A DNA stretch of 64,000 nucleotides, from the NCBI GenBank assembly GCA_964347265.1, contig CAYFXV010000001.1, positions 14,397 through 78,396 of the forward strand, read 5' to 3'. This DNA comes from an uncultured archaeon. Its GTDB lineage: Archaea; Aenigmatarchaeota; Aenigmatarchaeia; Aenigmatarchaeales; Aenigmatarchaeaceae. Both the position numbers and the translations under genes were made by a program. Shown here piece after piece: positions 3,544 to 60,923 of this stretch; positions within the stretch are counted from its first letter, which is position 1, and each line of letters begins with the position of its first letter. Under the pieces are notes generated by a model that did not search any database, was not told the origin of the DNA, and worked only from the letters and a program-made list of their open reading frames with translations.

Positions 3544-4695
3544 ATGCTCTATAAAAACCTTAATTTAAATCTTATTAAAATTCCTAAAGTTAGGGTTGCT
3601 ACTGGTCTTTATTCTCATTGGGACTCTATAGTTAAGATTGATGAAAATATTTTGAACTGGATTAAAAAGGCTTATAAAGAAGAACCAAAAGGTGTTATAC
3701 TTAATTCTTTAGAAGAGACAGTATTTACTATAAAAGAAGCCCTCGAAAATGAAGGTAAAGAATTTTTAATATCTGAAGATGTTTATAATAGATTAGATCA
3801 GTTTTTCTTAAAAAGAGAATTTAGAATTGGTGGTAATGGATATAACATGGGAAACATGTTATTTTTATCAGAAATTATTCCTGTTGTATCTTATCCTATA
3901 AGATCTAAAAAATTAATGGAAAATTCTCCTGAGTTTAAAATTGTTTTAAAGGGTGAATTAAAGAAACCAATAGAAACAATAAGGATAACAGATCAGGATT
4001 ATGATCACATAATTATTGAACTTGAAAATTCTAGACATATTTTGTCATGGGACCCAATGACATCTCGGGGAATTTTTGATTATGAATTTTTAAAATTTGC
4101 TTCTGATCCAAAAAATATAGATATATTGATTCTTGCATATGCCCATTTGTTATTGCCTGATTATAAAAAGAAAACAGATGCAATTATAGATTTCTTAAGT
4201 GAAAAAAGGCCAAGAACTCATCTAGAGTTTGGTCTAGGTTGCGAAGAGTCTATGAAATATGCTATGGAAAAATTCTCAGAAGATAAATGTTGTGAGTCTT
4301 GGGGATTAAATGAAATAGAATGCAAAGTTTACTTAAATGCAACATCTGAAAATAAAAATGATTTAATAGAGTCTGCTCTAAATGCTATTAAAGAATACAA
4401 TATAGATAGAGTCTGTGTTCATACACCTGAATTTGTTTTTTCTATTTCTAAATATGATATAATGAAGGAGTATAGAGCTCTAATAACTGCTTGTCTTTTT
4501 GCTGCAGCAAGAACTTTTGGTGATTTAAAATTAAAAATTGCTAAATCATTGCCAACAACATATGAACCTGTTAAAGAAAAAATAGAAGAATACAATTTTT
4601 GTTTAGTACCATGTTTAATAAATAAATTCCCTAGAGTTTTAACAGGAATTGGTGATGGTTTTGCTGCTATTCAAGCTGTTAAAGCTCTAAGCTGA
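3544..4695 (+). CDS. ADP-dependent sugar kinase (ADP-glucokinase/phosphofructokinase family).
   Basis: 383 aa. All three family motifs are present: RIGGNGYNMGNML (the GG...AN region), NEIE (NxxE), and the C-terminal GIGDGFAA (GXGD catalytic motif). Confidence 0.65.
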   Translation: MLYKNLNLNLIKIPKVRVATGLYSHWDSIVKIDENILNWIKKAYKEEPKGVILNSLEETVFTIKEALENEGKEFLISEDVYNRLDQFFLKREFRIGGNGYNMGNMLFLSEIIPVVSYPIRSKKLMENSPEFKIVLKGELKKPIETIRITDQDYDHIIIELENSRHILSWDPMTSRGIFDYEFLKFASDPKNIDILILAYAHLLLPDYKKKTDAIIDFLSEKRPRTHLEFGLGCEESMKYAMEKFSEDKCCESWGLNEIECKVYLNATSENKNDLIESALNAIKEYNIDRVCVHTPEFVFSISKYDIMKEYRALITACLFAAARTFGDLKLKIAKSLPTTYEPVKEKIEEYNFCLVPCLINKFPRVLTGIGDGFAAIQAVKALS

Positions 4696-4983
4696 TTTAG
4701 CAATTTTCTTAGCCAACCTGTTTAAAGAAGCTCTTAGAATGTCTCCTTTGATGTTTTTCTTCTTTATTCTTTTCATACTAGCAGCAAACTTTGGTCTATC
4801 CATTGTTCCTTTTAACCAAGCCTCAAAATCATTCCTATCATCTCTTAAATGAAACTCTAGGCTTTCTATAGGAACTGTCTTCAGGCATTCTGAAAATTCA
4901 GAAAGATTATGAGCAATCTTTCCTGTAAAGCCTGAAGTAGTACAAAACCAAAAAGCTTTATCATTTGATACATTTTTTCCCAT
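4687..4983 (-). CDS. Hypothetical protein.
   Basis: 98-aa ORF convergent with the kinase gene. Unknown family. Confidence 0.35.
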   Translation of the reverse strand: MGKNVSNDKAFWFCTTSGFTGKIAHNLSEFSECLKTVPIESLEFHLRDDRNDFEAWLKGTMDRPKFAASMKRIKKKNIKGDILRASLNRLAKKIAKSA

Positions 4984-5122
4984 TTTATCACCATTCTATG
5001 GATTTTTTAACATTTTTCATTATATGTTTAAATACAGTTTTTAATTAAAATTTAAATATGTAGTAAACCATATACATTACGTATAAACTATAAAGGATTC
5101 TAATATTTAAAGATGATGTAGA

Positions 5123-6268
5123 ATGAAGGTACTGATGCTTGGTTGGGAATTCCCACCAGCCAAAACTGGAGGCTTAGGTACCCATTGCTATGAACTTGTT
5201 AAAAATTTAAGTAAAAGAGGCGTTAGTGTTCTACTATTAATTCCAAAAAGAACAGGGAATAAAAAACATAATATACCAAATGTAGAAATAATAGAAGTAG
5301 GTTCTGTTGCCTTAAACCCTTATAATACAACAAAACCTGATGATAAATTTGAAAAAGGTTATGGATGGAACTTCTTTGAAGAAGTTAGAGCTTTTAACAA
5401 AAGATGCGTTGAAATAGCAAAAAACAAGAAATTCGATGTTGTTCATTGTCATGATTGGATGACAATAGATGCTGGAATTAAAATTAAAAAAACAACAGGA
5501 AAACCTCTAGTTTTCACTGTTCACTCAACAGAATATGATAGAACAGCTTATATCTATCCTATGAAATTTATAATTGATATTGAGAAAGGGGGGATTCAAA
5601 AAGCAGATTTGGTTATAACAGTTAGCAAAGGTATGAAAAAACAATTAATAGAGAAATATAATGCTGAAGAGAAAAAGATTATAGTAATATATAATGGAAT
5701 AAATCCCTCTAAATATTTTGGATTGATTAAGAAAGGTAATAAAGGAATTGTCCTTTTCTTAGGAAGGCTAACAAATCAAAAAGGACCTTATTTCTTTTTA
5801 CATACAGCAAAAAAGGTTTTAGAAAAAAGGAAAGATATCATGTTCATAGTTGCTGGTCAGGGAGAACAGATGCCAGAACTAATTAGAATTGCAATTGGAT
5901 TAGGTATTATGGATAATGTTGTTTTTACTGGTTATTTAACCGAAGAAGAGCTTTTACAAGCTTATTATATGGCTGATGTTTATGTTATGCCATCAGTAGC
6001 AGAACCATTTGGAATTACAGCATTAGAGGCAATTGCTTCAGGAACTCCTGTTATTGTTTCTAAAAATGCTGGTGTTGCAGAAAAAATATTGCATTGTTTT
6101 AAAGTGGATTTCTGGGACACCCATGAAATGGCTAATAAAATAATATGCTTATTGAAATACCCCGTTCTGGGAGAATGTATGAGAAAAAATTCTTATAAGG
6201 AGATAAGAAACTTTGGATGGGATAGAGTAGCTGAACAAACAATATCAGTTTATAGGAGAGCTATATGA
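5123..6268 (+). CDS. GT-B glycosyltransferase. It is probably a small archaeal (GT5/GT4-type) glycogen synthase.
   Basis: 381 aa. N-terminal MKVLMLGWEFPPAKTGGLGTH resembles the Pyrococcus glycogen synthase N-terminus. The C-terminal E-x7-E region is PSVAEPFGITALEAIASGTPVIV. Confidence 0.6.
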   Translation: MKVLMLGWEFPPAKTGGLGTHCYELVKNLSKRGVSVLLLIPKRTGNKKHNIPNVEIIEVGSVALNPYNTTKPDDKFEKGYGWNFFEEVRAFNKRCVEIAKNKKFDVVHCHDWMTIDAGIKIKKTTGKPLVFTVHSTEYDRTAYIYPMKFIIDIEKGGIQKADLVITVSKGMKKQLIEKYNAEEKKIIVIYNGINPSKYFGLIKKGNKGIVLFLGRLTNQKGPYFFLHTAKKVLEKRKDIMFIVAGQGEQMPELIRIAIGLGIMDNVVFTGYLTEEELLQAYYMADVYVMPSVAEPFGITALEAIASGTPVIVSKNAGVAEKILHCFKVDFWDTHEMANKIICLLKYPVLGECMRKNSYKEIRNFGWDRVAEQTISVYRRAI

Positions 6269-7440
6269 CATCGCTTTGTTTTTATTTTCAGGTTCACCAA
6301 CCAATGAGATTAAATAGATTTTCTATCTTTACTAAAGGTTCTCCTTATTTTGATGAAGAAAGAAACAAAGCGTATTTAAAAAAAGTTTCAAATAAATGTT
6401 ATTTACCAACTAACAAACTTCTTTTAGATCTAATAAATGAATATGAGAAAAAATTCAAAATTGCCTTTAGCTTAACTGGAGTTTTTGTAGAGCAATGTAA
6501 AAAATATGCACCTGAAGTTTTAGAATCTTTTAAAGAATTAACCAAGACTGGAAACGTTGAGTTTTTAAATGAAACTTATTATCATTCTTTAGCAGTCTTA
6601 TTTTCTGAAAAGGAATTTAAAGAACAAATAAAACTTCATAGGAAAATGATATTAGAATTGTTTAACCAAAAACCAAAAATTTTTAGAAATACTGAAGCAA
6701 TGTATTCAAACAGTATTGCCAAACTAATTGAAAAATTAGGATATAGAGGAATAATAACAGAAGGTCATGAAAGTATTCTAGGGTGGAGATCACCTAATTA
6801 CTTGTACTATCCAAATGGTTGTAAAAAAATTTCAGCCTTATTGAGGAACTATAAATTAAGTGATGATATTGGTTTTAGGTTTTCTGCTCGATGGTGGGAA
6901 GAATATCCACTGACTGCTGATAAATATTCGATATGGTTATCAAAATGTGAAGGTCATTGTATTAATGTATTCATTGATTATGAAACATTTGGAGAACATC
7001 AATGGGAAGATACAGGAATATTTAATTTCTTAAAATACTTACCATCTGAAATTTCTAAATATCCAAGTCTTGATTTTAAAACTCCATCTGAAATTATTAA
7101 ATCATATAAACCTGTTGGAGTCATAGATGTTCCACATACAATTTCTTGGGCAGATGTCCAAAGAGATCTTTCAGCCTGGCTTGAGAATGAAATGCAAAAA
7201 CTTGCTTTTGAACAAATGGCAAAACTTGAAGAACATGTTAAGAAAAACCCAGAATTGTTGCATACATGGAGATTACTTCAAACTTCTGATCATTTTTATT
7301 ATATGTGTACTAAGTGGTTTGCTGATGGTGATGTTCACAAATATTTTAATCCTTATAATTCTCCTTATGATGCATTTATTAACTTTATGAACATTTTACA
7401 AGACCTAAGAAGAAAGTTGGGTTTAAATGAAAGTAGATGA
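6265..7440 (+). CDS. GH57-family glycoside hydrolase (alpha-amylase, 4-alpha-glucanotransferase or branching-enzyme-like).
   Basis: 391 aa. N-terminal FYFQVHQPMR matches the GH57 region-I HQP signature. It overlaps the upstream GT gene by 4 nt, which suggests an operon. Confidence 0.5.
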   Translation: MTSLCFYFQVHQPMRLNRFSIFTKGSPYFDEERNKAYLKKVSNKCYLPTNKLLLDLINEYEKKFKIAFSLTGVFVEQCKKYAPEVLESFKELTKTGNVEFLNETYYHSLAVLFSEKEFKEQIKLHRKMILELFNQKPKIFRNTEAMYSNSIAKLIEKLGYRGIITEGHESILGWRSPNYLYYPNGCKKISALLRNYKLSDDIGFRFSARWWEEYPLTADKYSIWLSKCEGHCINVFIDYETFGEHQWEDTGIFNFLKYLPSEISKYPSLDFKTPSEIIKSYKPVGVIDVPHTISWADVQRDLSAWLENEMQKLAFEQMAKLEEHVKKNPELLHTWRLLQTSDHFYYMCTKWFADGDVHKYFNPYNSPYDAFINFMNILQDLRRKLGLNESR

Positions 7441-9373
7441 TCTAAAATGGGAATATCTACCAATAGAAAATCCTGATTGGGATTATGCTAGAAACCTCTT
7501 TACTGTTCTAAAAAGACCTCAAGCAACTTGGTCTCAATCTATTTTTTCTGTAAGACATAAAAACTTAATTGCACCTAACAGAGATTATAAATTTCAAGGA
7601 TTATATGTTTTTGTTAATAAGGAGTATTGGAAATTTTTAGATGCTATATTCTTTGGAATAAAAGAATTTCATATGGAACCTAAAAAAGTAATAATTTTTC
7701 CTTGGAAATCTGTTTATCAATATTTTGGAGATGGAATCGATGTTGATGTTTCTTATTATTTATCTAGAGATATGAGAGAAGGCATAACAGCAAAAATCAT
7801 ATTTGATATAAAGAACTCTTTTTTTAAAGAACTAATAATTAAACCTTTAGTTGATATTAGGAATATTTTTTCAGATTCAAAACCAGAAAAAATTAAAACT
7901 AAAGTTAATAACAACTCTTTGACTGCATCCTTTGGAAAAAATAAAATTTCTTTTTTTGTTAATGATAGTAGTATTTTAGCTGAAAAGGAGATTTTAAATT
8001 GGAAATATAAATTGGGAAGTGGATTTAGAGAAAATACTAGCAATGGTATAAGATTTGTTTCAGAATGGGCTAGGCCTGTATTCATTGGAGAAATTCACAA
8101 AAGATTATCTGGAGATGAAAAGATTTCTTTAATAATAAACTGTAATAGAAAAAATGATGATTTCGATGAAAATGAGGAAAAATTATATGTAAATCAAATA
8201 ACTAAGAAATTTAATTGTAAAAATGAATTGTTAGCAAGAATAATCTCATTGGATAGTTTTGGTATATTAGAAAAAAATATTTTAATACCAGAAGCCGGAG
8301 ATTTCTGGTTTAGACAAATATGGCTAAGGGATTTGTTAGAATCGTTAATTAATAATTTTCAAACTTTCATCAAATTAGATAACAAAAAAATAAATGAAAT
8401 AATAAAATGGATACTAAAACAACAAAATAGAAAAACTGGGAGATTCCCAAATTTCAAAAATAATTATAATTCTGTTGATACAAGTCTTTTATTCTTTATT
8501 TTAGCTGAAAAATACCTAAAACACTTCAATGATAAAACAATGGAAAAAAGAATTTTAGAAAGTTTTAATTTACTTTTTAAAAAATTTTCTGAAAATAAAA
8601 TAGAAAATAATGGGCCACCAGTAATTAAACATTATATGTTATACTCTATGCCATGGCATTCTTGGACAGACTCTAGAATTCCTTTCAGAGGAGATATGAT
8701 ATCTACAAGAATTCCACATGAATGGGTTAAAGAAGAGAATTTAGAAGAAATACTCAAACCATGTTTGTTACCTGAAATAAATGCAATGTTTATTAGAACT
8801 TTAAAAGTGGTGGAACTGTTAGGAAAAGATCTTGGAAATTTTTATAAAAAATCTTTAGAAAAATATAAAAAAATATTTCAAAATAATGATTTTCTATATT
8901 CTATAATTATTAACGATAAAAAAGATGCTACAGAAACTTCAATGGCATTGAATTCTGCTGTTTTGTTATATAATCATGTTTTTAATAAAAAAGATTTGGA
9001 AAAAATGTGGCCATCTGTTCAGAAATTATTAGTTAAAAGAAGTGGAAAATTGTTTGGTATTCTTTGTAGAAATATAAAAGATAGAATATATTACAACGAT
9101 TACCAATATCATGGAGCAGTTGTTTGGCCAAGAGACACTCCTTATCTCATTAGATACCTGAAAACAATTGGAAAAAATGATTTAGTAAAAGAAATTCTGG
9201 AAAGTAATTTAGAACATCAGATGAATGAATCTGGAATATTTTATTGTAATGAGTTATTTTCACTTCCTGAAGGAAAGAATCCATCCCCAACTAAAAGTGA
9301 TGGTAATCCTGTCCCAGTTAAGAACCCTATCCAATTATGGTCACATTTTTGTGATGATTATTTAAGAAGCTAA
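7427..9373 (+). CDS. Amylo-alpha-1,6-glucosidase / glycogen-debranching-enzyme-like six-hairpin glycosidase (GDE_C or GH15-like).
   Basis: 648 aa. It contains FWFRQIWLRDLLESL (a W.RD-type motif), and its size and operon context with glycogen enzymes fit. Confidence 0.45.
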   Translation: MKVDDLKWEYLPIENPDWDYARNLFTVLKRPQATWSQSIFSVRHKNLIAPNRDYKFQGLYVFVNKEYWKFLDAIFFGIKEFHMEPKKVIIFPWKSVYQYFGDGIDVDVSYYLSRDMREGITAKIIFDIKNSFFKELIIKPLVDIRNIFSDSKPEKIKTKVNNNSLTASFGKNKISFFVNDSSILAEKEILNWKYKLGSGFRENTSNGIRFVSEWARPVFIGEIHKRLSGDEKISLIINCNRKNDDFDENEEKLYVNQITKKFNCKNELLARIISLDSFGILEKNILIPEAGDFWFRQIWLRDLLESLINNFQTFIKLDNKKINEIIKWILKQQNRKTGRFPNFKNNYNSVDTSLLFFILAEKYLKHFNDKTMEKRILESFNLLFKKFSENKIENNGPPVIKHYMLYSMPWHSWTDSRIPFRGDMISTRIPHEWVKEENLEEILKPCLLPEINAMFIRTLKVVELLGKDLGNFYKKSLEKYKKIFQNNDFLYSIIINDKKDATETSMALNSAVLLYNHVFNKKDLEKMWPSVQKLLVKRSGKLFGILCRNIKDRIYYNDYQYHGAVVWPRDTPYLIRYLKTIGKNDLVKEILESNLEHQMNESGIFYCNELFSLPEGKNPSPTKSDGNPVPVKNPIQLWSHFCDDYLRS

Positions 9374-9398
9374 CTAATTAATGATATGAGGTATTGTT

Positions 9399-11189
9399 AT
9401 GAAAACCCAAGCAAATGTTTTGTTTGAAGTAGCTTTTGAGGTATGCAACAAAGTTGGAGGAATATATGCTGTTATAGAGTCAAAAGCTGCCCGAATGGTT
9501 GAATTATATAAAAATAATTACTTTGCTGTAGGACCTTATTATCCTGAAAGAGCTATTCTAGAAACCATAAAACAAAAACCTCCAAAATTTTGTGAAAAGG
9601 TTTTTTCTAGCTTAAATAAAAACGGAATTAAGTGTCATTATGGAAAGTGGATTGTAGAAGGAAAACCAAATGTCATACTAGTTGAATTTAATGATCTATT
9701 AGAAAAAGTTAATAATATAAAAACAGAATTATGGAAAAAATATAAAGTTGATTCTTGGGGAACTAAGTTTGATTTTGAAGAACCTGTTGCTTGGTCAACA
9801 GCTGCTGGAATGCTAATAGAAAAACTTTTTCCATGTTTTGAAAATAAAAATGTTGTTGCTCATTTTCATGAATGGTTATCAGGAGCAGCTTTATTATATC
9901 TAAAAGATAAAGTCCCTACTGTTTTTACCACACATGCAACAATGTTAGGAAGAACAATAGCTGGATGGGGAGAAGATTTGTATAAAGAGGTTAATGATGC
10001 AATTTATACTAATACTCCTTTAGATCCAAAAAGACCTCACAAATATGGAGTTCAAGCAAAACACCAAATGGAAAAAGCTTGCGCTGAAAATTGTACTATT
10101 TTTTCAACAACATCTGAAATAACATCCAAAGAAGCAATCTACATACTAGGAAAAATACCTGATATAATATTACCAAATGGTTTAGATATAGAAAGATTTC
10201 CTACAATGGAAGAGTTTGCTTTATTACACAGAAAATACAGAGAAAAAATCAAGCATTTTCTAAGTGCCTATTTTAATCCTTATTATGAAACAGATTTGTG
10301 GGATGCAATGGTTTTTTTCACATCTGGAAGATATGAATTCAGAAATAAAGGATATGATGTTCTAATAGAAGCTTTAGGAAAATTGAATGAAAGAATGAAA
10401 AAAGAAAAAATTAAAAAAAATATTTTTGTTTTCTTCTATGTTCCTAGAGGCGATATTAAAGATAATATTGAAATCATGGAAAGTACTCAATTATATGATG
10501 ATATGAGAGAAACCGTAGACGATGAATTGCCTTGGATAGAAGAAATGATTTTGGATTCGCTTGCAAAAGGCAAAATGCCAAAAATGAGAGTTATACTTAA
10601 AAAAGAGTTTTTAGAGGAATGTAAAAGAAAAATAGCTGCCTTTAAAAGAAAAGGCAATCCTCCTTTTTCTGCATATATTGTTGATGAAGATGATTTAATT
10701 GTAAATGCTTTTAAGGAAAACAGGCTCTTGAATAGAATTGATGATAAAGTTAAAGTAATATTTTATCCTTCTTATTTATCAACAACAGACAGATTATTAG
10801 GATTAAACTATGAACAAGCTGTTCAAGGTTCTCATTTAGGCGTGTTTCCTTCATATTATGAGCCTTGGGGATATACCCCCCTTGAGTGTGCTGCAAATGG
10901 TGTTTTGTCTATAACTTCTGATTTTGCTGGCTTTGGAATATTTATTAAACAGAATTCTGATCAAAGTAAAAACCCTGGAATAGGGGTTTTAGAAAGAGAT
11001 AGCAAAAGTCGTGAAGAAGTTATTGAAAAATTATATGAAATGTTATGGAACATTGTTATTATGTCTAGAAAAGAAAGAATACCTAAGAAAGCTCAAGCAA
11101 AAGACTTAGCTTCACTAGCTGATTGGAAAATATTAATTAAAAATTATGTTCAAGCACATAACATGGCTTTAGAAAGATTTAAGAAATAA
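9399..11189 (+). CDS. Glycogen synthase, GT3 (eukaryote-type) family.
   Basis: 596 aa. N-terminal LFEVAFEVCNKVGGIYAVIESKA closely matches the fungal/animal glycogen synthase N-terminus (LFE.A.EV.N.VGGIY.V..SKA). HFHEWLSGAALLYLK matches the HFHEW block. Confidence 0.7.
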   Translation: MKTQANVLFEVAFEVCNKVGGIYAVIESKAARMVELYKNNYFAVGPYYPERAILETIKQKPPKFCEKVFSSLNKNGIKCHYGKWIVEGKPNVILVEFNDLLEKVNNIKTELWKKYKVDSWGTKFDFEEPVAWSTAAGMLIEKLFPCFENKNVVAHFHEWLSGAALLYLKDKVPTVFTTHATMLGRTIAGWGEDLYKEVNDAIYTNTPLDPKRPHKYGVQAKHQMEKACAENCTIFSTTSEITSKEAIYILGKIPDIILPNGLDIERFPTMEEFALLHRKYREKIKHFLSAYFNPYYETDLWDAMVFFTSGRYEFRNKGYDVLIEALGKLNERMKKEKIKKNIFVFFYVPRGDIKDNIEIMESTQLYDDMRETVDDELPWIEEMILDSLAKGKMPKMRVILKKEFLEECKRKIAAFKRKGNPPFSAYIVDEDDLIVNAFKENRLLNRIDDKVKVIFYPSYLSTTDRLLGLNYEQAVQGSHLGVFPSYYEPWGYTPLECAANGVLSITSDFAGFGIFIKQNSDQSKNPGIGVLERDSKSREEVIEKLYEMLWNIVIMSRKERIPKKAQAKDLASLADWKILIKNYVQAHNMALERFKK

Positions 11190-11195
11190 AAATTC

Positions 11196-11591
11196 TCAAG
11201 CTCTCATATCAGGAAGTTCCGGTAATCGAACACTTAAAGATCTAGTAGGTATTCTATTCATTATCATTCTGTTTAGGTTTTTAATAGTTATTATTTCTTT
11301 TAATCTCCTACTGGTTTTAAATGGAACAGCATGATATACTCTTCTAGGTTTTTCATTATCCAGATGTCCTTTTTTTGAACTAACATAACCTTTTTCTTCT
11401 AAAGTGTGTAATAATGGATAAATTTCAGAGGGACTAAAAAGAACTCCATACTTTTCTCTAAAATCGGTAAGAAGCTTATAACCATGAGTGGGTTCTTTCA
11501 ATATATTTCTTAAAAATATTTCTTCCATATTGGCCTTCAAATCTTTTCTAACTAATTGTTTTATTGTTTCCATTCTCGATATTGTTTCCAT
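11196..11591 (-). CDS. PadR-family transcriptional regulator.
   Basis: 131 aa. THGYKLLTDF...YPLLHTLEEKGYV is a PadR wHTH signature. Confidence 0.65.
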   Translation of the reverse strand: METISRMETIKQLVRKDLKANMEEIFLRNILKEPTHGYKLLTDFREKYGVLFSPSEIYPLLHTLEEKGYVSSKKGHLDNEKPRRVYHAVPFKTSRRLKEIITIKNLNRMIMNRIPTRSLSVRLPELPDMRA

Positions 11592-11679: not shown

Positions 11680-12114
11680 TTAGTATTTTTTCAAATGTCC
11701 ATGAATATACTTCTCAAATATTGTAAGAAATACTAATTTATCTCTTCCAGTATTAATAACTCTATGATACTTGTTAGGGAGAACTGTAACCAAATCTCCT
11801 TTTTTAACATTAATCTTCTTCTTATCAACAATTATATATCCTCTACCTTTCAAAAAAATATAAACTTCTTCAGCATTGTGTTTGTGTCCCCTAGTCATTT
11901 TAAATTCAGAATTGACTTTTCCAGGATATAGAAAATTCATACAAACCATAAGTCTTTTCAAACCAGTTTTTTTAACAGGCAAGTCAATTAAAACTTCGTT
12001 AATATCGTTTTTATGACCTTTAATGTTTTTGTAGATATTTTTACCTTTTTCGATCGCGTCTTTAACTTTCATTTTTAATGTCTTACCTTTGAACTTATTG
12101 ATGTTAAATTTCAT
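11680..12114 (-). CDS. Cupin-domain protein, probably a cupin-type glucose-6-phosphate isomerase (cPGI).
   Basis: 144 aa. MTRGHKHNAEEVYIFLKG matches the cPGI signature T.GH.H....E.Y. It sits beside the TIM and FBPA/P genes. Confidence 0.5.
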   Translation of the reverse strand: MKFNINKFKGKTLKMKVKDAIEKGKNIYKNIKGHKNDINEVLIDLPVKKTGLKRLMVCMNFLYPGKVNSEFKMTRGHKHNAEEVYIFLKGRGYIIVDKKKINVKKGDLVTVLPNKYHRVINTGRDKLVFLTIFEKYIHGHLKKY

Positions 12115-12779
12115 TTCATCCCCATTATTAATTCTTCCATAGCTTTTTCAACATTTCCTGCTTTGACTACACCAGAAGCTAATATAACTCCTTTTGTTCC
12201 AAGTTCAATTGCTTTTTTAACATCTTCTCTTGTTTTAATCCCTGCTCCGCAAAGAACATAGGTTCTTGGTGAAATTTTCTTAACATCATTAACAGATTTT
12301 TTTATTATTTCTGGTTTAGCAGTTGAAACAGAAACATCACCTCCAATTAATTCTGGAGGTTCAATTGCAATAAAATCTGGTTTAAATTCTGCTATTTTTT
12401 TTACTTCATTATTATCTTTAGCACAAACAATCGACACTAATTCATATTCTTCACATAAGTCAACACATTTCTTAATATCTTCATGCGGAATCCTTCTTTC
12501 AGAATGATTTATTATAGAACCGACTCCGCCTAATTCCTTTACTTCTTTAGGAAGCAAAGCTCCTGTATGTGCACCTGGTTCATAAGGATCTAGATGTTGA
12601 GAAATAGTTGAAGTAATTTTGGCAACTTCATTTAACAAAGGAGTAGGCGGTGCAATTAAAATAGTTACATTATATTTATTAGACAACTCTTTAGCAACTT
12701 CTGCAAACTTTATAGGCTTTTCTCCAAGAACTTGTTCATACTCTTTCAAATTTATTATTAATATAGGAAGTTTCATCAT
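12111..12779 (-). CDS. tpiA: Triosephosphate isomerase (archaeal short type).
   Basis: 222 aa. It has the INHSERR motif, the GAGIKT phosphate-binding region and typical archaeal TIM length. Confidence 0.85.
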   Translation of the reverse strand: MMKLPILIINLKEYEQVLGEKPIKFAEVAKELSNKYNVTILIAPPTPLLNEVAKITSTISQHLDPYEPGAHTGALLPKEVKELGGVGSIINHSERRIPHEDIKKCVDLCEEYELVSIVCAKDNNEVKKIAEFKPDFIAIEPPELIGGDVSVSTAKPEIIKKSVNDVKKISPRTYVLCGAGIKTREDVKKAIELGTKGVILASGVVKAGNVEKAMEELIMGMK

Positions 12780-13870
12780 ATATCCTGGAATCTATTTTTT
12801 AGTTTTTCCTTTACTGCAGGTAAGGTTGTGTATTCCATTTCATCTGCACCTAACCTATGTGGTTCGAATGGTCCTTGTCTTCTTAGAATATCTGCAATTT
12901 TTAATGCTTCTTGTCTAGCTTTGTCAAATGATTTATCCTTAAGCATGTCCCTTGATGTACCTAACATTCCATTGGCTAATTGAAAACCCAATGCCATAAC
13001 TCTTGGCGGTCCATCAAATCTTGAGGGCGTAGCATCTTCAACAGCCACAGGCATTAAAGGACCGTGATGACTTCCTCTCATCCAACCAGCAACAATCCAT
13101 GGATGTGCAAATCCTTCTAAAACTTCTCCAACTGCTGGCAAACCATGTTGCGCTCTTACAAACATAACTGGATCATCTTTTCCAACATATTTTCCTGCAA
13201 TTAAACTTAATCTACTTGTAGATGTGGAAACTGCATACAATTTGTCTGAAGTTCTGTAAACATGTTTTATAACATATCTTCCAGGTTGTCCAATTAATGC
13301 TAACAAATCATAAATCTCTTCAGGACATTTTAATTCAACTTTTTTATTTTCTATAACATCATGAACCTCGAATGTAAATCCTCCATGCATATGAGGATCA
13401 ATAACTAGACCTGCTGTTGAGAATGGGTCTGCAAACATTTTGTATAATGGAATATTCCATGCTCCTGGCTCTGTTTTATCTGCCATAAAAATAATAACTG
13501 GTTCTGATTTTCTTTCTTCGAATTCCAGTTCTGCAACACCTGGTCCCATTCCTTTTAGATTCCCTGAGAAAGTATCTTTTAATAAATCTTGACCAGCTCC
13601 ATAAAGTTTTAGTTCTTTAGCTTTTTCTGTGCATTTTTTAAAAGTATTCCAAGCCATAGCATGCACATCTTTATTATCAACACCATGTTGATGAGTCATT
13701 ATTAGTTGTAAATCATCTCCACATCCTGTAACATAAAAATCTATTAAAAAACCTTTGTTTTTCTCGTCTTGAAGAATGTTTCTTGCCATTTCAAGAATTT
13801 CTGGATGACTTGAAGAATGTCCAACGTATCCTCCTATGTCAGCTTTGATAACACTTAGCGTAATTTTCAT
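12776..13870 (-). CDS. fbp: Bifunctional fructose-1,6-bisphosphate aldolase/phosphatase (FBPase class V).
   Basis: 364 aa. N-terminal MKITLSVIKADIGGYVGHSSSHPE...DDLQLIMTHQHG is highly characteristic of archaeal FBPA/P. A TATA-like TTTATATTA lies about 25-35 nt upstream on the minus strand. Confidence 0.9.
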   Translation of the reverse strand: MKITLSVIKADIGGYVGHSSSHPEILEMARNILQDEKNKGFLIDFYVTGCGDDLQLIMTHQHGVDNKDVHAMAWNTFKKCTEKAKELKLYGAGQDLLKDTFSGNLKGMGPGVAELEFEERKSEPVIIFMADKTEPGAWNIPLYKMFADPFSTAGLVIDPHMHGGFTFEVHDVIENKKVELKCPEEIYDLLALIGQPGRYVIKHVYRTSDKLYAVSTSTSRLSLIAGKYVGKDDPVMFVRAQHGLPAVGEVLEGFAHPWIVAGWMRGSHHGPLMPVAVEDATPSRFDGPPRVMALGFQLANGMLGTSRDMLKDKSFDKARQEALKIADILRRQGPFEPHRLGADEMEYTTLPAVKEKLKNRFQDI

Positions 13871-14601: not shown

Positions 14602-16071
14602 ATGTTTGATTCAATAAAATTTGTTAAGGACAATAAAACTGTTTACAAAATTCTAATTAATGGAAGATGGAAAGAATCTTCTAATAAAAAAACTTTTGGA
14701 ATAAAAAACCCAGCCGACGGATCATTAATAGCAGAAGTTCAGAAAGCTACTAAAAAAGACGCTGAAAATGCTGTTAAAGCTGCCTTTAATGCAAAATCAA
14801 AAATAGCAAACATGGATGCTTCTGAAAGAGGAGACATTTTAGATAAAATGGGAAATTTATTAGAACAACACAAAGAAGAATTCATAGACATTATTTGTAA
14901 GGAGTCTGGAAAAACAAGAAAACTAGCTCAAGGAGAACTTCATGCTTCAATAGGAAGACTACATTATGCATCTGATGAAGCAAAAGAAATAAGAGGAGAA
15001 CTAATAAAAGGAGATATTGCAGGTAAAAGAAATTCAATGGGAATTGTTATTAGACAACCTTTAGGAGTTTTATTAGCTATAACACCATTTAATTATCCTT
15101 TGTTTACAGGAATTGCAAAAATAGCTCCTGGAATAGCAATTGGAAACTCAATTGTGGTTAAACCTGCAAGCGCTGATCCTATATGCTTGTTAATGTTTGC
15201 AAAAATTATGCAAGAAGCAGGAATACCAGATGGTGTAGTAAATATAGTTACAGGTTCAAGTTCAGAAATAGGAGATTATTTGTGTTCTCATCCTAAGATT
15301 GATATGATTTCATTTACAGGAAGCAGTGCAGTTGGAAAACATATAACATCTATTGCTGGAATGAAAAAATTACATTTAGAATTAGGAGGAAAAGCACCAG
15401 CAATTGTTTTAGAAGATTGTAACTTTGATATAGCTGTTAAAGAAGTTGCAATTGGTTCTTTAAAGTTCTCAGGCCAAAGATGCGATTCAATAAGTAGGGT
15501 GTTAGTTGTAGAACCAATAGCTGATAAATTTGTTAATGCCATGTTAGAAGAAATTAAAAAATGGAAACTTGGAAACCCTAGAGATCCTGAGACTGTTGTT
15601 GGGCCTTTAATAAATGAAGCTGCTGCCAAAAAAGTTGAGGAATTAGTTAATGATGCTGTTAAAAAGGGTGCAAAACTTTTATATGGTGGGAAAAAATATG
15701 ATCGTGGATATTTTGAACCAACAGTTCTAGATTTTGTTAATAGAGATATGAGAATTGCTTGGGAAGAAACATTTGGACCTGTGGTTACGATTATAAGAGT
15801 TAAAGATTATGAAGAAGCAATTAAACTTGCAAATGAATCTGAATATGGATTAGATGCTTGTATATTTACAAAAGATATTGATAAAGCATTTGATGCTGCG
15901 CAAAGAATTGAAGCTGGTTCTGTTCATATAAATGCTCATCCAACTCATGGTTTAGGAGTGTTCCCATTTGGTGGAGATGAAAGCTCTGGAGTAGGAAGAG
16001 AAGGAATTAAATATAGCATAGAAGATATGTCAAAAGTTCATGTTATGGTTTTGCATTCTCACAAAGAATGA
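14602..16071 (+). CDS. Aldehyde dehydrogenase family protein, probably a non-phosphorylating glyceraldehyde-3-phosphate dehydrogenase (GAPN).
   Basis: 489 aa with ALDH motifs ELGGKAP and FSGQRCDS (catalytic Cys). The GAPN assignment rests on the glycolytic neighbourhood. The internal minus ORF 15288..15629 is spurious. Confidence 0.7.
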   Translation: MFDSIKFVKDNKTVYKILINGRWKESSNKKTFGIKNPADGSLIAEVQKATKKDAENAVKAAFNAKSKIANMDASERGDILDKMGNLLEQHKEEFIDIICKESGKTRKLAQGELHASIGRLHYASDEAKEIRGELIKGDIAGKRNSMGIVIRQPLGVLLAITPFNYPLFTGIAKIAPGIAIGNSIVVKPASADPICLLMFAKIMQEAGIPDGVVNIVTGSSSEIGDYLCSHPKIDMISFTGSSAVGKHITSIAGMKKLHLELGGKAPAIVLEDCNFDIAVKEVAIGSLKFSGQRCDSISRVLVVEPIADKFVNAMLEEIKKWKLGNPRDPETVVGPLINEAAAKKVEELVNDAVKKGAKLLYGGKKYDRGYFEPTVLDFVNRDMRIAWEETFGPVVTIIRVKDYEEAIKLANESEYGLDACIFTKDIDKAFDAAQRIEAGSVHINAHPTHGLGVFPFGGDESSGVGREGIKYSIEDMSKVHVMVLHSHKE

Positions 16072-17124
16072 TTATTTCATTTTAAAATTTAATATTTCAT
16101 CTGGAGTTAATGCTTTGTTATAAATTCTAAATGAATCTATTATTCCATTAAAAGCCTCTCCAGCACTTGAAGGTATAGCACCTATACCAAAATCATTTGT
16201 CATATCCATTACATAATTATATGAACCGGTTTCAACAGACTTTCCATTTCTGTATATTATCCAATTTCCTGTTATGGTTTCGTATGTCATAACAAAATGT
16301 GTCCAAATATCATAACCCCAACCACTCGACCATACAGACATAGCTGACCAAGTTGTTCCATCACCTAAATAACAATACATAGTTGTGGAACCAGAAAAGA
16401 AATAACATGTACTAAAATATCTAGAAAGGAAAGGTCGTTGCATACTACCTTTTTCTCTCATATTAAACCAGAATTCTATTGTAAAACCATCTGGAAAATT
16501 CCCAAATTTATTTATTGCTACATAATCATCTATTCCATCAAATTCTAAAGCCTTACCAAATTTACCATTAACCCATTTGGGACATTCAGAAGTAGGGGGG
16601 TCTGAACAAATAGTAGTATAATCATATAATGTTCCATCATTTTCATATCCAGATTTATCATGTGCAATTGTTCCTCTACCTTCATCAAAATCTAAAGCTA
16701 AAAGAGCAGAATTATGTAAAAGAGATTCTACTCTCTGAACAATTTGTAAACTTGGATTAGATATTTTTAAGTCATAATCTCCTATACTTATTCCTAATAT
16801 ATCAACTGTTATAGTTCCTATTTCTCCTTTTCTTATAGTTTCAGGTGTCATGTTAAATTCAAGAGGTTCATCATCCAAGAAAACATTTAAACTGTCATTA
16901 ACTATTACTCCGCTTCCACAATTTTTTATATAAATATTATTTTTATGGATTGAATCTACTATCATACAAGTAGAGAGAATCTCTCTTGTTCTTGTTGTTC
17001 TTTCAGTTCCAGATTCTGTTAATTCTTTTACTGTCCCAAAAGTAAATAACCAAAAAAGGGTTGTTAGGAATATTAAAATTAACAAGACTAATAGTAATGT
17101 TACAATCGCTGAAAGACCACGCAT
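16072..17124 (-). CDS. Type IV pilin-like protein with a LamG/concanavalin-like lectin domain.
   Basis: 350 aa. N-terminal MRG/LSAIVTLLLVLLILIFL resembles an archaeal class III (prepilin) signal peptide. The C-terminal region (DGIDDYVAINKFGNFPDGFTIEFWFN...) is LamG-like. Confidence 0.5.
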   Translation of the reverse strand: MRGLSAIVTLLLVLLILIFLTTLFWLFTFGTVKELTESGTERTTRTREILSTCMIVDSIHKNNIYIKNCGSGVIVNDSLNVFLDDEPLEFNMTPETIRKGEIGTITVDILGISIGDYDLKISNPSLQIVQRVESLLHNSALLALDFDEGRGTIAHDKSGYENDGTLYDYTTICSDPPTSECPKWVNGKFGKALEFDGIDDYVAINKFGNFPDGFTIEFWFNMREKGSMQRPFLSRYFSTCYFFSGSTTMYCYLGDGTTWSAMSVWSSGWGYDIWTHFVMTYETITGNWIIYRNGKSVETGSYNYVMDMTNDFGIGAIPSSAGEAFNGIIDSFRIYNKALTPDEILNFKMK

Positions 17125-17155: not shown

Positions 17156-18466
17156 ATGAGTATTTTTAGGGCTTATGATATTCGTGGAATTTATGGAAAA
17201 GATTTAACAGAAAAAGTCATGAAAAATATAGGAAAGGCTTTAGGAACTTTTCTTGGTGGTAACAAAAATGTTTGTGTTGGGTATGACACTAGAAAGTCAT
17301 CTAAAAAATTATTTGAAGCATTTTCTTCAGGATTAACTTCTACAGGTTGTAATGTTATATCTCTGGGATTAGTAGCAAACCCTATGCTATATTTTTATGC
17401 TTGGAAAAACAAAATTTTTGGAGCCTTAATAACTGCAAGCCATAATCCAAAAAATTGGAATGGTTTAAAAATGGTGAGACCAAATGGAGTCAGTTTCATA
17501 GAAGAGATTAAATTAATAGAGAATACATATGATTCCAAAAAATTTATTAAAGGTAGGGGAAGGATAACTAAAGCAGATGTATTTAAAAATTATAAAAAAT
17601 TTTTAGAAAGTAAGTTTGGGGTTATTAGAAAAAAAGTTGTCGTTGAGTGTTTTGGAGCAGCTGCTGTTACTGCTCTGCCAATTCTAAGAAGTTTAGGACT
17701 TGATGTAATAAGTCTTCATGACAAACCTGATGGAAATTTCTTTGGGTTTACGAGACCTGAACCAAAAGGAGAAAATCTAAATATGCTTAAAAAAGCTGTT
17801 AAAAGAGAAAAAGCTGATTTTGGAGTTGCATTTGATGGAGATGGTGACAGATCTGTTTTTGTTGATAACAGAGGTAGAGAACCTAATGTAAGCTCAGTAA
17901 TAGCAACTTTTGTTGATTATATATTAAAGAAAAAGAGGGGGTCTATTCTTTTAACAGCTGATTGTGCAAGCGAAATTGAAGATATTGCCAAAGAGTTGAG
18001 AGGAAAAACTATTTGGTGGAGAGTTGGACATGGATTTATAGAAGAAAAAAGTGCAAAAGAAAAAGTTTTATTTGCTGGAGAACAAAGTTCTCATCTTTAT
18101 TTCAATGAATTTTATCCATTCTCTGATGGCATACTTGCAACTATTTATTTAGCTAAAATACTTTCAGAAAGTAAAAAAACACTATCGGAATTACTTGACG
18201 AAATAAAAATACATCCAATAAAAAAATTATATATTAATGTTGGAAGCGATGAAAACAAAATAAGAATTATAGAAAGTTTAAAGAAAAGATATCCTAATGC
18301 TCTAGATATAATGGATGGCATTAAAATGAAATTAGATGATGTAGAATGGGTTCTAATAAGAGCAAGTCAAACAAATCCAGAAATAAATTTATGCGTGGAA
18401 GCAAGGAATGAAAACAGGATGAAAAACATTATTAGAGAATACATTAAATTAGTTAAACAAATTTAA
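17156..18466 (+). CDS. Phosphoglucomutase/phosphomannomutase (alpha-D-phosphohexomutase).
   Basis: 436 aa. It has the active-site loop TASHNPKNWNGLK (TASHNP), the metal-binding FDGDGDR, and overall domain order. Confidence 0.85.
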   Translation: MSIFRAYDIRGIYGKDLTEKVMKNIGKALGTFLGGNKNVCVGYDTRKSSKKLFEAFSSGLTSTGCNVISLGLVANPMLYFYAWKNKIFGALITASHNPKNWNGLKMVRPNGVSFIEEIKLIENTYDSKKFIKGRGRITKADVFKNYKKFLESKFGVIRKKVVVECFGAAAVTALPILRSLGLDVISLHDKPDGNFFGFTRPEPKGENLNMLKKAVKREKADFGVAFDGDGDRSVFVDNRGREPNVSSVIATFVDYILKKKRGSILLTADCASEIEDIAKELRGKTIWWRVGHGFIEEKSAKEKVLFAGEQSSHLYFNEFYPFSDGILATIYLAKILSESKKTLSELLDEIKIHPIKKLYINVGSDENKIRIIESLKKRYPNALDIMDGIKMKLDDVEWVLIRASQTNPEINLCVEARNENRMKNIIREYIKLVKQI

Positions 18467-19470
18467 TATTGTCTTGCAATATCAGAAAGCCTTTCTGGAA
18501 TTATATGAGGTACTGTTTCTCCTGAAAACTCTAAATATCCTTCCCAAGATTTAGTTCCTTGATTCAAAGGAGCTCTTGAAAATATTCTAAATTGATTACA
18601 AAAATTATCTCTAGGGGCTGCACTAAGATTTACAATATTTAATTGTTCAGAAACTCTATCAATTTTAATTCTTATTGCCTTGTCTAAGAATTTTGCAACA
18701 GCACTAATTTCTTTATCATTCATTTTTTGAAAACTAGAATTTTCTAAGGTCATTACAACAAATTCCGTTTTTCCAAAAACAGGAGACCATTCAACAAAAA
18801 ATACAACCTTGCTTTCTTCATCAAAATCTATAACCAATTCTTCTTTAATTAAAGCCTTAACCCAAGATTTCCAATACTTTTTACTTCCTAATTTCATAGT
18901 CAGGGCAGTTTTAGCTAAGGGTTTGTCTTCACAATGGAATTGAGCATGAAAATGTTCTAAAGAAGATGCTGCCTTAGAACCGCAATTAACATGCATAGAA
19001 ACATATTTTTTCTTTGAAAGTTTTCCTATTTTCTTTACAAGCTTAATACTATCTACCCAATTATTCAATAACAAATCTCTCGGATCTACTATGTGTCTTT
19101 TATAATTATGAACTACTACACCATGTATTTTCGCAAAAGGAAATAAATTTGAAAAAACAAGAGAATCATTTAAGATATATTGTTTTTTCAATCCAGTTTC
19201 TTTTGAAAACTTAGCACATTTTTTAGGATCACAAAAAAAGCATCTTAATGAAGGTGTTTTGAAACCGAGAGTAGTAGTTTCTATTTTTCTAGCTTCTCTT
19301 TCAGGAGCTATTCTAGATCTAGAATAAAAAGCAGGGTTGTTTCTTATTTTAGTTTCACATGCTTTAGATTGACCTTCTGGCTCTACAACAAAAACCCTAA
19401 TTGTTTTTTCGAGTTTTTTTAAGTCTGTTTTTCTAACCCCTTTTAGGTACTTTTCTAAAGCTTTTAGCAT
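18463..19470 (-). CDS. GalT-family (HIT-like) nucleotidyltransferase, either a galactose-1-phosphate uridylyltransferase or an NDP-glucose phosphorylase-like enzyme.
   Basis: 335 aa. It has an N-terminal zinc motif CFFCDPKKC and an H-x-H-x-Q motif in LEHFHAQFH, matching GalT's HPHGQ. It is adjacent to the phosphohexomutase. Confidence 0.5.
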   Translation of the reverse strand: MLKALEKYLKGVRKTDLKKLEKTIRVFVVEPEGQSKACETKIRNNPAFYSRSRIAPEREARKIETTTLGFKTPSLRCFFCDPKKCAKFSKETGLKKQYILNDSLVFSNLFPFAKIHGVVVHNYKRHIVDPRDLLLNNWVDSIKLVKKIGKLSKKKYVSMHVNCGSKAASSLEHFHAQFHCEDKPLAKTALTMKLGSKKYWKSWVKALIKEELVIDFDEESKVVFFVEWSPVFGKTEFVVMTLENSSFQKMNDKEISAVAKFLDKAIRIKIDRVSEQLNIVNLSAAPRDNFCNQFRIFSRAPLNQGTKSWEGYLEFSGETVPHIIPERLSDIARQY

Positions 19471-27394: not shown

Positions 27395-27462
27395 TCTCGA
27401 GAAATAAAAAGAAAAAGAAAAAAGGGGTAGCTGATTTCTTCAAACTATTCTATTAAGAATAG
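27395..27462 (-). terminator. Putative terminator of the S-layer-like gene: a hairpin overlapping the stop codon followed by T-tracts.
   Basis: Inverted repeat CTATTCT-atta-AGAATAG at 27445..27462 spans the stop. On the transcribed strand it is followed by CCCCTTTTTCTTTTTCTTTTT. Confidence 0.4.
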
Positions 27463-39545: not shown

Positions 39546-40514
39546 CTACTTGCCTGAAACTGTTACGCTAGCTGTTCTTTCAACCCAATAACCATAGTCT
39601 GCTGTTACTTTGATCTGATCTGACCTAAATGTTGAAGGTATGGATGTTACAGTTACATCACAAGTTATTGTTGCTTCACCTTTTGTTAATTCAAATGTAT
39701 CGGCACAATCTTCCTCACCACTCCATCCAGGTACATCTGATACATCTATGTCTATCCAGTTTAATTGTGTTTCTGCATCAATTTCATAATCAGTTCCATC
39801 ATAAGCAACTGCACCTTGTAGGTAAACTGTTCCACCACCTACGCTACTAGCTTTTATTTGTAGTGTAAATGTTTGATCACCATCAACAATTACATTTGTT
39901 GGTTTTACTGTCACATATAATGCAACAGGACCTCCTGTTGAAGTGAATGAATTTTGATTTAATGATCTTCCTGCTGCTTTTGCTGCATCAGCTTCTGCCT
40001 CATCATAAATCCATACATTACCTGTAACAGTAGTTGTGTAATCGTAATAAAGTCTTCCTATGAATACATCAGTTCTTGATATTCCTGGATCAATAGCTGT
40101 AGGTGAGGTTAAATACCAGTTTACTGTCTTCTCGTCTGCTGGGACATCTCTAACTGGGTCATACGGATCCATATCCTTTCCCATAGTTTGATGAGTTGTA
40201 GTGGTAGTACCTCTTTCAGTCCAATATAAACCACCGTCTGGTGAGAAGTCACTTCGAAGAGCTGAACCTTGCAACACAGCTAATGCACTACCATCTGGTA
40301 CACTTGAACCACCTTTGTTAATAATTGTCATTGTAATTTTTGCTGAACGGTTGTTATAAACTTCTGTATTATCTATAGAGAATTCTTCTACTACTAAACC
40401 GCCTCCAGCAAAAACTGTAGGTGATGTTATCCATGGTATTGATATTGGTCCGCCCTGAATACACCCTGCTATAAAGATTATAGCCAGCGTAGCTAACAAA
40501 ATCTCTTTTTTCAT
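39546..40514 (-). CDS. Secreted lipoprotein-like protein, paralog A.
   Basis: 322 aa with signal peptide plus lipobox-like LAIIFIAGCIQG. It is a paralog of 40623..41582 and shares ETQLNW, the KAAGR block and overall layout with it. Confidence 0.5.
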   Translation of the reverse strand: MKKEILLATLAIIFIAGCIQGGPISIPWITSPTVFAGGGLVVEEFSIDNTEVYNNRSAKITMTIINKGGSSVPDGSALAVLQGSALRSDFSPDGGLYWTERGTTTTTHQTMGKDMDPYDPVRDVPADEKTVNWYLTSPTAIDPGISRTDVFIGRLYYDYTTTVTGNVWIYDEAEADAAKAAGRSLNQNSFTSTGGPVALYVTVKPTNVIVDGDQTFTLQIKASSVGGGTVYLQGAVAYDGTDYEIDAETQLNWIDIDVSDVPGWSGEEDCADTFELTKGEATITCDVTVTSIPSTFRSDQIKVTADYGYWVERTASVTVSGK

Positions 40515-40622
40515 TTAAAAATCACCTTTTATTTCTATCATAAAATTGTAAGGCGTATATTTATAGATTTAGGTTAGGGAGTTGTACATTGCTTACACTA
40601 CAAAAAATTTGCATTTTAGAAT

Positions 40623-41582: not shown

Positions 41583-41689
41583 ATTTTCACTGATATAAAA
41601 TTGTAAAGTACGTATTTATAGTTAGCGGTCATTATTACACTTTATAAAAACAATGTGGATTAACAAATTAAAAGAATAAATATTCAGTA

Positions 41690-43881: not shown

Positions 43882-43921
43882 TAAATCTCCACTTTATATT
43901 TTATTTTTTAATTTAAAGATT

Positions 43922-46246: not shown

Positions 46247-46300
46247 ATTAATCCCAATGCTTTTATCTAAACTAAATATGAGAAATCGTACTTATAATAT

Positions 46301-52155: not shown

Positions 52156-52269
52156 TGGGCGAGGTGAGATTTGAACTCACGACCTCCAGTATTTACAGAA
52201 CGCAGCCACAAAAAATGACTAACGTCATTTTATAAGACTGGCGCTCTAACCAAACTAAGCTACCCGCCC
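52156..52269 (-). tRNA. Intron-containing tRNA. The anticodon is TAT (tRNA-Ile) if the intron is at the canonical 37/38 position.
   Basis: Reverse complement: acceptor GGGCGGG/CTCGCCC, D-arm GCTT..GAGC, anticodon stem CCAGT/ACTGG enclosing CTTATA plus a ~39-nt insert (with hairpin ATGAC-GTTA-GTCAT), T-arm GTGAG-TTCAAAT-CTCAC. Confidence 0.65.
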
Positions 52270-60029: not shown

Positions 60030-60037
60030 ATGATTTC

Positions 60038-60919: not shown

Positions 60920-60923
60920 TGAA

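Follow-up and report, generated by a model that had tools for sequence, protein, structure and literature searches.

The window analysed in the present study, a whole stretch of 64,000 nucleotides (64 kb) from a contig of an uncultured DPANN archaeon of the Aenigmatarchaeota, contains at positions 5123-11189 four genes that seem to form an operon for making and remodelling an intracellular glycogen-like alpha-glucan, with the roles split among its enzymes. The probability of this reading is estimated at roughly 0.55. The operon begins with a glycosyltransferase similar to members of family GT4, ends with a glycogen synthase (GS) of family GT3 and includes a short GH57 enzyme and a debranching-type (GDE-like) protein between them:

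5123-6268, plus strand: GT4-like retaining GT-B glycosyltransferase, 381 amino acids (aa), first operon gene (Pfam, PDB and family-profile matches)
6265-7440, plus strand: short GH57 enzyme, 391 aa (PF03065, 285 bits)
7427-9373, plus strand: divergent GDE_C/GH133-type amylo-alpha-1,6-glucosidase-like protein, 648 aa (relatives with PF06202)
9399-11189, plus strand: GT3 glycogen synthase, 596 aa, last operon gene (PF05693, 481 bits)

The open reading frames (ORFs) of both transferases were found exactly where an earlier annotation, made from the letters alone (hereafter, the sequence-only reading), had placed two glycogen synthases, with the two other ORFs between them. Its observation that two retaining GT-B transferases of different CAZy-type families stand in one operon with a GH57 gene and a GDE-type gene was upheld. 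The GT4-like and GH57 genes overlap by 4 bp and the GH57 and GDE-like genes by 14 bp; a 25-nt gap with a Shine-Dalgarno-like GAGGT site precedes the GT3 gene. The GC content is uniform across the operon region (0.28-0.30, with about 29% for the window), and the closest named relatives of the window proteins belong to Candidatus Aenigmatarchaeota and to a bin labelled Micrarchaeota RBG_16_36_9. AT-rich, TATA-like stretches were noticed by eye upstream of the operon, in 4984-5122.

The GT3 glycogen synthase has long been held to be the eukaryotic enzyme. The product of 9399-11189 matches the Pfam profile Glycogen_syn (PF05693) with 481 bits against a cut-off of 27, over residues 10-593 of 596, which confirms the assignment to GT3 that the sequence-only reading had drawn from the strings LFEVAFEVCNKVGGIYAVIESKA and HFHEW, both present in the protein. 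The Pfam profiles Glycos_transf_1 and Glyco_transf_5 are matched as well. Human GYS1 is matched at E=1.8e-115 over residues 6-593, and the structures of human GYS1, yeast Gsy2 and C. elegans GSY-1 align over the whole length with E values from 1e-115 to 1e-108. The full-length alignment with human GYS1 and yeast Gsy2p (about 35% identity) extends through the helical insertion that makes up the tetramer interface of the eukaryotic enzymes. The motif K18-V-G-G, residues R311 and K317 and the pair E488-X7-E496 align with yeast R20, R320, K326, E509 and E517, of which R320 and K326 are, as we take it from Gsy2p structural work, donor-binding; these catalytic and donor residues are kept in nearly all of the 24 aligned sequences.

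The glucose-6-phosphate (Glc6P) site of the eukaryotic enzymes can also be traced in the window protein. Yeast H286, K290 and H500, which presumably belong to this site according to the same structural work, correspond to H277, R281 and H479. The Glc6P-binding residues R579, R582 and R586 of the human enzyme (PMC9287172) correspond to R557, R560 and K564. Among 17 sequences, 15 archaeal and two from Patescibacteria, H277, H479, R560 and K564 are kept in all or nearly all, and positions 557 and 281 are occupied by R or K in most and by other residues in a few; the site residues are not conserved in the GT3 sequences of Bacteroidales. The phospho-sensing residues R588 and R591 of the human enzyme are replaced by Q566 and D569. 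Residue 6 of the window protein aligns with human residue 27 and its end lies at about human residue 618, and both the N-terminal phosphorylation sites 2/2a and the C-terminal sites 3a/3b are absent. Because of these replacements and the absence of both tails, the protein is regarded as a core GT3 synthase with a probable Glc6P site and without phosphorylation control.

Profile, motif and fold comparisons place the first transferase, a predicted retaining GT-B enzyme, on the border between GT4 and GT5 or on the GT4 side. Pfam returns Glycos_transf_1 (109 bits), Glyco_transf_4 (102 bits) and Glyco_transf_5 (91 bits, above the cut-off of 22.7). The combination of a Glyco_transf_4 N-domain, a Glycos_transf_1 C-domain and a compact GT-B fold like that of MshA, BshA and GlgM is that of a GT4 enzyme, and relatives at 55-91% identity bear the NCBI name "glycosyltransferase family 4". 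The sequence-only reading had described this protein as a minimal synthase of the Pyrococcus type. The resemblance is real: in a single-sequence search, the best PDB match is the Pyrococcus abyssi synthase (GT5, PDB 2bis/3fro) with 92 bits, GlgM following with 77 bits. The P. abyssi alignment has about 28% identity along the full length; the window protein, about 55 residues shorter, has a local K-T-G-G-L and shares GRL..QKG and E-X7-E with that synthase. The resemblance is not specific, since in every other comparison the GT4 enzymes do at least as well. The family profile searched against the PDB gives GlgM a slight lead (139 bits versus 131 for the P. abyssi synthase), with the GlgM (6tvp) alignment covering residues 100-379 only and that of the P. 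abyssi synthase covering the full length. The best NCBIfam match, TIGR02149 (glgA_Coryne, GlgM type), reaches 154 bits, under its cut-off of 302; TIGR02095 (glgA) reaches 104 bits of the required 328, and the PRK00654 GlgA equivalogs are all far under their cut-offs. In the lysine position of K-X-G-G-L (K14), the 78 family members have I in 34, N in 18, K in 13 and S in seven cases, and the motif KTGGL was dropped as evidence for GT5, its lysine not being conserved. Taken together, the lead of GlgM in the profile search, the low TIGR02095 score and the variable lysine do not sustain a Pyrococcus-type GT5 synthase.

Invariant in the 78-member alignment are G-G-L, R215, K220 and E294-X7-E302. 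The AlphaFold2 model of the GT4-like protein has a pLDDT of 85, and the Foldseek search of the PDB gave TM-scores of 0.76-0.82 to MshA, BshA, GlgM and SPS, with the P. abyssi synthase nearly equal, so the fold comparison cannot settle GT4 versus GT5. It is probable that the enzyme is an alpha-1,4-glucosyltransferase. The two transferases of the operon, which the sequence-only reading had called non-homologous, are homologous and distantly related, as judged from the profile-profile comparison: hhalign gives a probability of 97% (E=9.5e-11) for the two families and aligns HCHDW of the GT4-like family with HFHEW of GT3, and GRLTNQKG with GRYEFRNKG.

The earlier naming of the two middle genes fared well for GH57 and in part for GDE. 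The GH57 protein is a member of its family by the PF03065 match. Residues E144 (in RNTE) and D238 (in DYETFGEH), which we take from the GH57 literature to be the catalytic glutamate of region 3 and aspartate of region 4, are nearly invariant in 26 sequences, and HQP, GxxE and SDHFYY-type regions are visible. A single-sequence search of the PDB gave no match for this protein; the best match of the family profile, the 4-alpha-glucanotransferase 1k1w, is weak (E=1.9e-8, residues 43-169 only). Close kinship to the characterised branching enzymes of Thermococcus kodakarensis, Thermus thermophilus and Pyrococcus horikoshii was not found. Clustered at 50% identity, the short subfamily has 734 representatives that match at E<=1e-30. 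It may be regarded as a candidate chain-transfer or branching partner of the GT4-like enzyme. The characterised GH57 enzyme of Pontibacter (PMC11206854) was set aside as a reference, as it belongs to a GlgE-type locus and is not evidently of the same subfamily.

The GDE-like protein by itself stays below the Pfam threshold (GDE_C, 17.3 bits versus a cut-off of 21, E=0.0024, residues 290-611); it matches the archaeal GDE 7vma at E=0.0017, with the motif YH..VWP.D in common. Its full-length homologues (33-39% identity, E of about 1e-107) carry PF06202 and are named amylo-alpha-1,6-glucosidase, and this transitive homology supports membership of 7427-9373 in GDE_C/GH133. The N-termini of the GH57 and GDE-like proteins, judged by eye, are unlike signal peptides, so the substrate is probably intracellular.

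The recurrence of these genes was surveyed by scanning one genome per species for the GT4-like family; of at least 599 matches, the 80 best were kept (loci L002-L081), and the neighbours in them were counted by tblastn and hidden Markov model (HMM) searches. In 66 of the 80 loci, the gene immediately following the GT4-like gene encodes a short GH57 enzyme (42-60% identity), and this adjacency occurs in Thermoplasmatota, Methanosarcinales, DPANN, Patescibacteria, Planctomycetota, Bacteroidales and Gammaproteobacteria. Of the surveyed loci, 21 contain a neighbouring GDE-type gene and 16 have GT3 within 10 kb. Many genomes have the GT4-like/GH57 pair with no GT3 nearby, which suggests that the pair can work without GT3 and is probably self-sufficient. 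In a sample anchored on GT3 and consisting of eight DPANN-type loci, a GDE_C-type gene was found in all eight and a GT4-like gene within 10 kb of GT3 in six. Synteny between locus L082 and the window extends for more than 15 kb. In Bacteroidales, the order is GDE, GT4-like, GH57 and a GT3 fusion of about 1400 aa. The arrangement of the operon is a typical one for DPANN and for some bacterial lineages, and the literature already contains its elements.

In the proposed mechanism, the GT4-like enzyme would probably start or extend short alpha-1,4 chains, and its GH57 partner would rearrange or branch them; the latter is proposed as the branch maker because a debranching-type enzyme implies branches and no other operon protein is a candidate for making them. 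The bulk of the elongation would fall to GT3, probably tuned by Glc6P, and the GDE-like enzyme would later remove the branches. Hexose phosphates would be moved in and out by a sugar kinase, a glucose-6-phosphate isomerase (PGI), triose-phosphate isomerase (TIM), fructose-1,6-bisphosphate (FBP) aldolase/phosphatase and phosphoglucomutase (PGM). Since candidates for all of these surround the operon, the region can be described as a sugar-phosphate and glycogen island, with the following neighbours:

3544-4695, plus strand: sugar kinase of the ADP-PFK/GK-like type, 383 aa, a distant and short family member (PF04587, 52 bits)
4687-4983, minus strand: small DUF5752 protein, 98 aa, divergent from the operon (PF19027, E=8e-8)
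11196-11591, minus strand: PadR-family transcription regulator, convergent with GT3 (PF03551, 48 bits)
11680-12114, minus strand: candidate cupin-type glucose-6-phosphate isomerase (Cupin_2, 48 bits; GPI PF06560, 41 bits; syntenic in L082)
12111-12779, minus strand: archaeal triose-phosphate isomerase (NF003302, 268 bits, cut-off 132)
12776-13870, minus strand: FBP aldolase/phosphatase of gluconeogenesis (NF041126, 595 bits, cut-off 520)
14602-16071, plus strand: aldehyde dehydrogenase, GAPN/lactaldehyde-dehydrogenase-like (PF00171, 537 bits; NCBIfam equivalogs under their cut-offs)
17156-18466, plus strand: phosphoglucomutase/phosphomannomutase, glucose-6-phosphate to glucose-1-phosphate (PGM_PMM domains I-III; syntenic in L082)
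18463-19470, minus strand: tentative hexose-1-phosphate nucleotidyltransferase/NDP-glucose phosphorylase of the GalT family (HIT branch), a weak candidate (HIT and DcpS_C, E of about 0.002)

The sugar kinase is far below every NCBIfam cut-off for ADP-glucokinase (67 bits versus 387 for the ADP-glucokinase model). A kinase of the same type occupies the matching position in L082, and a PfkB kinase is found there in L083.

Several observations weigh against the proposed division of roles. No nucleoside diphosphate (NDP)-glucose pyrophosphorylase, glycogenin-like GT8 protein or phosphorylase was found among the scanned ORFs of the window, which represents 64 kb of the genome. The GH57 profile matches branching enzymes only weakly (3n8t, E=0.04; 1ufa, E=0.021; 5wu7, E=0.05), and the protein is nearest to a 4-alpha-glucanotransferase and more than 100 residues shorter than the known GH57 branching enzymes. 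The GT4-like family matches GlgM, a maltose-1-phosphate synthase, as well as it matches a true glycogen synthase, and a non-polymer product is therefore possible. In two of the eight GT3-anchored loci, the GT4-like gene is absent nearby, so GT3 does not strictly depend on it in cis. The taxon labels of metagenome bins may be wrong, and no archaeal GT3 enzyme has been characterised (PMC11046441).

The sequence-only reading had suggested that the two transferases differ in donor specificity (UDP- versus ADP-glucose) or in priming versus elongation roles, and both suggestions are plausible. An alternative in line with the first of them, unlikely as a whole but the best supported of those considered, is that the two transferases work in parallel, each a fully competent glycogen synthase, differ mainly in the donor (for example, UDP-glucose versus ADP- or GDP-glucose) and provide redundancy or condition-specific synthesis. 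The donor-binding Arg/Lys pair and E-X7-E are present in both proteins, archaeal GT5 synthases accept several NDP-glucoses (PMC11046441), the pair found alone in so many genomes may be a complete synthase system, and the two GT3 loci without a GT4-like gene fit this picture too. However, no NDP-sugar pyrophosphorylase of either kind was found in the window, donor specificity is not readable from these sequences, and the recurrent linkage of GT3 with the pair in DPANN, Patescibacteria and Bacteroidales suggests cooperation rather than redundancy.

Somewhat less probable still is the possibility that the GT4-like enzyme is GlgM-like and makes maltose-1-phosphate or another small alpha-glucoside for GH57 or for a GlgE-type enzyme encoded elsewhere in the genome, leaving GT3 as the sole glycogen synthase. 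The leading place of GlgM in the profile search and of TIGR02149 among the NCBIfam models would agree with it, as would Picrophilus torridus, which has a GT4-GH57-GH133 cluster and GlgE and is devoid of a GT3 or GT5 synthase (PMC11046441). Nevertheless, the TIGR02149 score is barely half its cut-off, the GlgM match is partial where that of the P. abyssi synthase extends over the full length, and neither the window nor the fetched loci show a GlgE; an identity to GlgM of about 20% was judged too low for such a call (PMC11046441). A split of roles between the GT4-like enzyme and GT3 is tentatively preferred to both alternatives.

As to the origin of the GT3 gene, each of its 120 best database relatives is of DPANN-type origin, with 47-100% identity. 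In a neighbour-joining tree of 24 sequences, for which the human and yeast sequences were reconstructed from printed PDB alignments, the window protein was placed inside a clade of Aenigmatarchaeota and RBG_16 (DPANN) with a bootstrap of 100, and the eukaryotes and Bacteroidales formed separate clades, each with a bootstrap of 100. This topology agrees with the published tree of a 2024 review (PMC11046441), which had already reported GT3 in DPANN and Euryarchaeota and placed DPANN sequences near PVC bacteria and eukaryotes (its section 3.4.1). The term "eukaryote-type" used in the sequence-only reading is therefore correct as a family label and fails in the phylogenetic sense, since the enzyme groups with DPANN archaea and the eukaryotes stand apart. 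The same gene order is found on the independent DPANN assemblies L082, L083, L085, L086 and L088, the flanks contain archaeal markers (aEF-1beta, FBP aldolase/phosphatase and archaeal TIM), and the uniform GC content gives no sign of recent transfer or contamination. A foreign origin of this gene in the archaeal cluster, by contamination or by recent gain from a eukaryote or bacterium, for which the full-length 35% identity to animal and fungal enzymes might speak, is ruled out for practical purposes by this synteny, by the phylogeny with its exclusively DPANN-type best homologues, and by a GC content matching that of the window.

Loci labelled as Patescibacteria (Saccharibacteria, Paceibacterota and Parcubacteria) also have the GT4-like/GH57 pair (L014, L016, L021, L023, L025, L028, L039, L047 and others). 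The GT3 proteins of L014 and L023 are about 45% identical to archaeal GT3 and were placed among the DPANN sequences. This points either to gene transfer among ultra-small members of the two domains or to mis-binning. In Bacteroidales, GT3 is the N-terminal part of ORFs of about 1400 aa (L038 10946-15157, L071 5173-9414, L074 12843-17078 and L078 12500-16723), in which a second large domain, perhaps a phosphorylase, may be fused to it.

The small protein divergent from the operon belongs to a family of about 95 aa with the motif cFW..G..A.nL.eL...H....NDF..W, which recurs in archaea, Patescibacteria and Gammaproteobacteria. A DUF5752 HMM built from eight copies detected the gene beside GH57 in 17 of the 80 loci (L002-L081), in some of them as two or three tandem copies and in L022 in one reading frame with GH57; it is present in L082, L085 and L086 as well. 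Examples are L014 13269-13556, L016 6750-7019, L019 7442-7738, L020 12411-13651, L022 7694-9169 and L086 9672-10004. DUF5752 is considered a putative conserved accessory of the GT4-like/GH57 module. A full-text literature search for DUF5752 returned no paper, and the single-sequence AlphaFold2 model (pLDDT 48) was not used for a fold search.

A second recurrent neighbour is a gene of the GalT family (PF01087/DUF4921, HIT branch), which lies directly beside GT3 in many loci of DPANN and Patescibacteria, for example, L020 6725-7681, L023 5203-6258, L027 6694-7668, L083 6979-7947, L084 9785-10717 and L087 5761-6702. In these relatives, the enzyme may replace a pyrophosphorylase as the supplier of the nucleotide-sugar donor. 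The window contains a weak relative with the motif EHFHAQ beside PGM, at 18463-19470; it matches the GalT-family gene of L083 with E=3e-7 in BLASTP, the motif N.G..A..S..H.H.Q being common to both, and an HMM search gave E=3e-5. Its best PDB match is weak (E=0.12): the Arabidopsis GalT-like protein 1z84, which we take to be an ADP-glucose phosphorylase.

A broader and quite tentative proposal, which we consider improbable in its entirety, is that the GT4-like enzyme, GH57 and DUF5752 would serve archaea and bacteria alike as a start-and-branch module for prokaryotic GT3, taking the parts that glycogenin and the GH13 branching enzyme have in eukaryotes, that a GalT-like NDP-glucose phosphorylase would be the donor source, and that the tail-less, Glc6P-sensitive GT3 of DPANN would represent the state before eukaryotic phosphorylation control.

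Comparison with described systems shows where the operon stands. Relative to human GYS1 and yeast Gsy2p, the window GT3 lacks the regulatory tails, and no GT8 glycogenin partner was seen in the window. The GlgA-GT3 enzymes of DPANN (PMC11046441) belong to the same family and taxonomic group as the window GT3; that review does not contain the linkage of GT3 to the GT4-like, GH57 and DUF5752 genes or the conservation of the Glc6P site, both of which come from the present analysis. The GH133-GT4-GH57 clusters of Picrophilus torridus and Segatella copri consist of the same trio of gene types as 5123-9373. The gene order in S. copri (PMC11784079) is the Bacteroidales order of GDE, GT4-like and GH57, and the Thermoplasmatota loci match the description of the P. 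torridus cluster (PMC11046441), with orthology in both cases judged from related metagenome bins. Unlike the window, P. torridus has no GT3. The similarly arranged genes of both organisms are listed as GT4 in papers that used CAZy (PMC11784079, PMC11046441), and the function of the GT4 gene beside GH57 and GH133 is marked as unknown in the review (PMC11046441).

In Sulfolobus acidocaldarius, the accumulation of glycogen requires two co-transcribed genes, glgA and the GH57 gene amyA (PMC8158581). The logic of pairing a synthase with a GH57 enzyme resembles that of the GT4-like/GH57 pair. The S. acidocaldarius synthase belongs to GT5 and is larger, and the two genes stand in the opposite order to the window pair. 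The review raises the question of whether GH57 "amylases" of this kind could be the branching enzyme missing in archaea (PMC11046441).

The operon and its relatives form a compact conserved gene set on which the questions of the literature about the priming, donor supply and regulation of prokaryotic GT3 can be addressed, including the role of GT4 beside GH57 and GH133, the branching of glycogen in archaea without GlgB, and whether the control of GT3 by Glc6P is pre-eukaryotic. The window is a typical example of a partly described system and does not constitute a new kind of system.

Other parts of the window contain features apart from the operon. Six consecutive minus-strand ORFs (322, 319, 420, 310, 774 and 261 aa) occupy 39546-47086 and have no Pfam match at E<=1e-5; their GC content of 0.31-0.34 is slightly above that of the rest of the window. 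Cell-surface genes, situated at 16072-17124 (minus strand), 27453-30239 (minus), 49164-50501 (plus) and 58212-61874 (plus), encode a Laminin_G_3 protein, an S-layer-like protein of 928 aa, a weakly matching GH16/dockerin-like protein, and a T2SSE ATPase with two T2SSF membrane proteins of pilus or archaellum type. Among the seven tRNA matches, the one at 52156-52269 (minus strand) is 114 nt long compared to the 71 positions of the model, which suggests an intron-containing tRNA gene.

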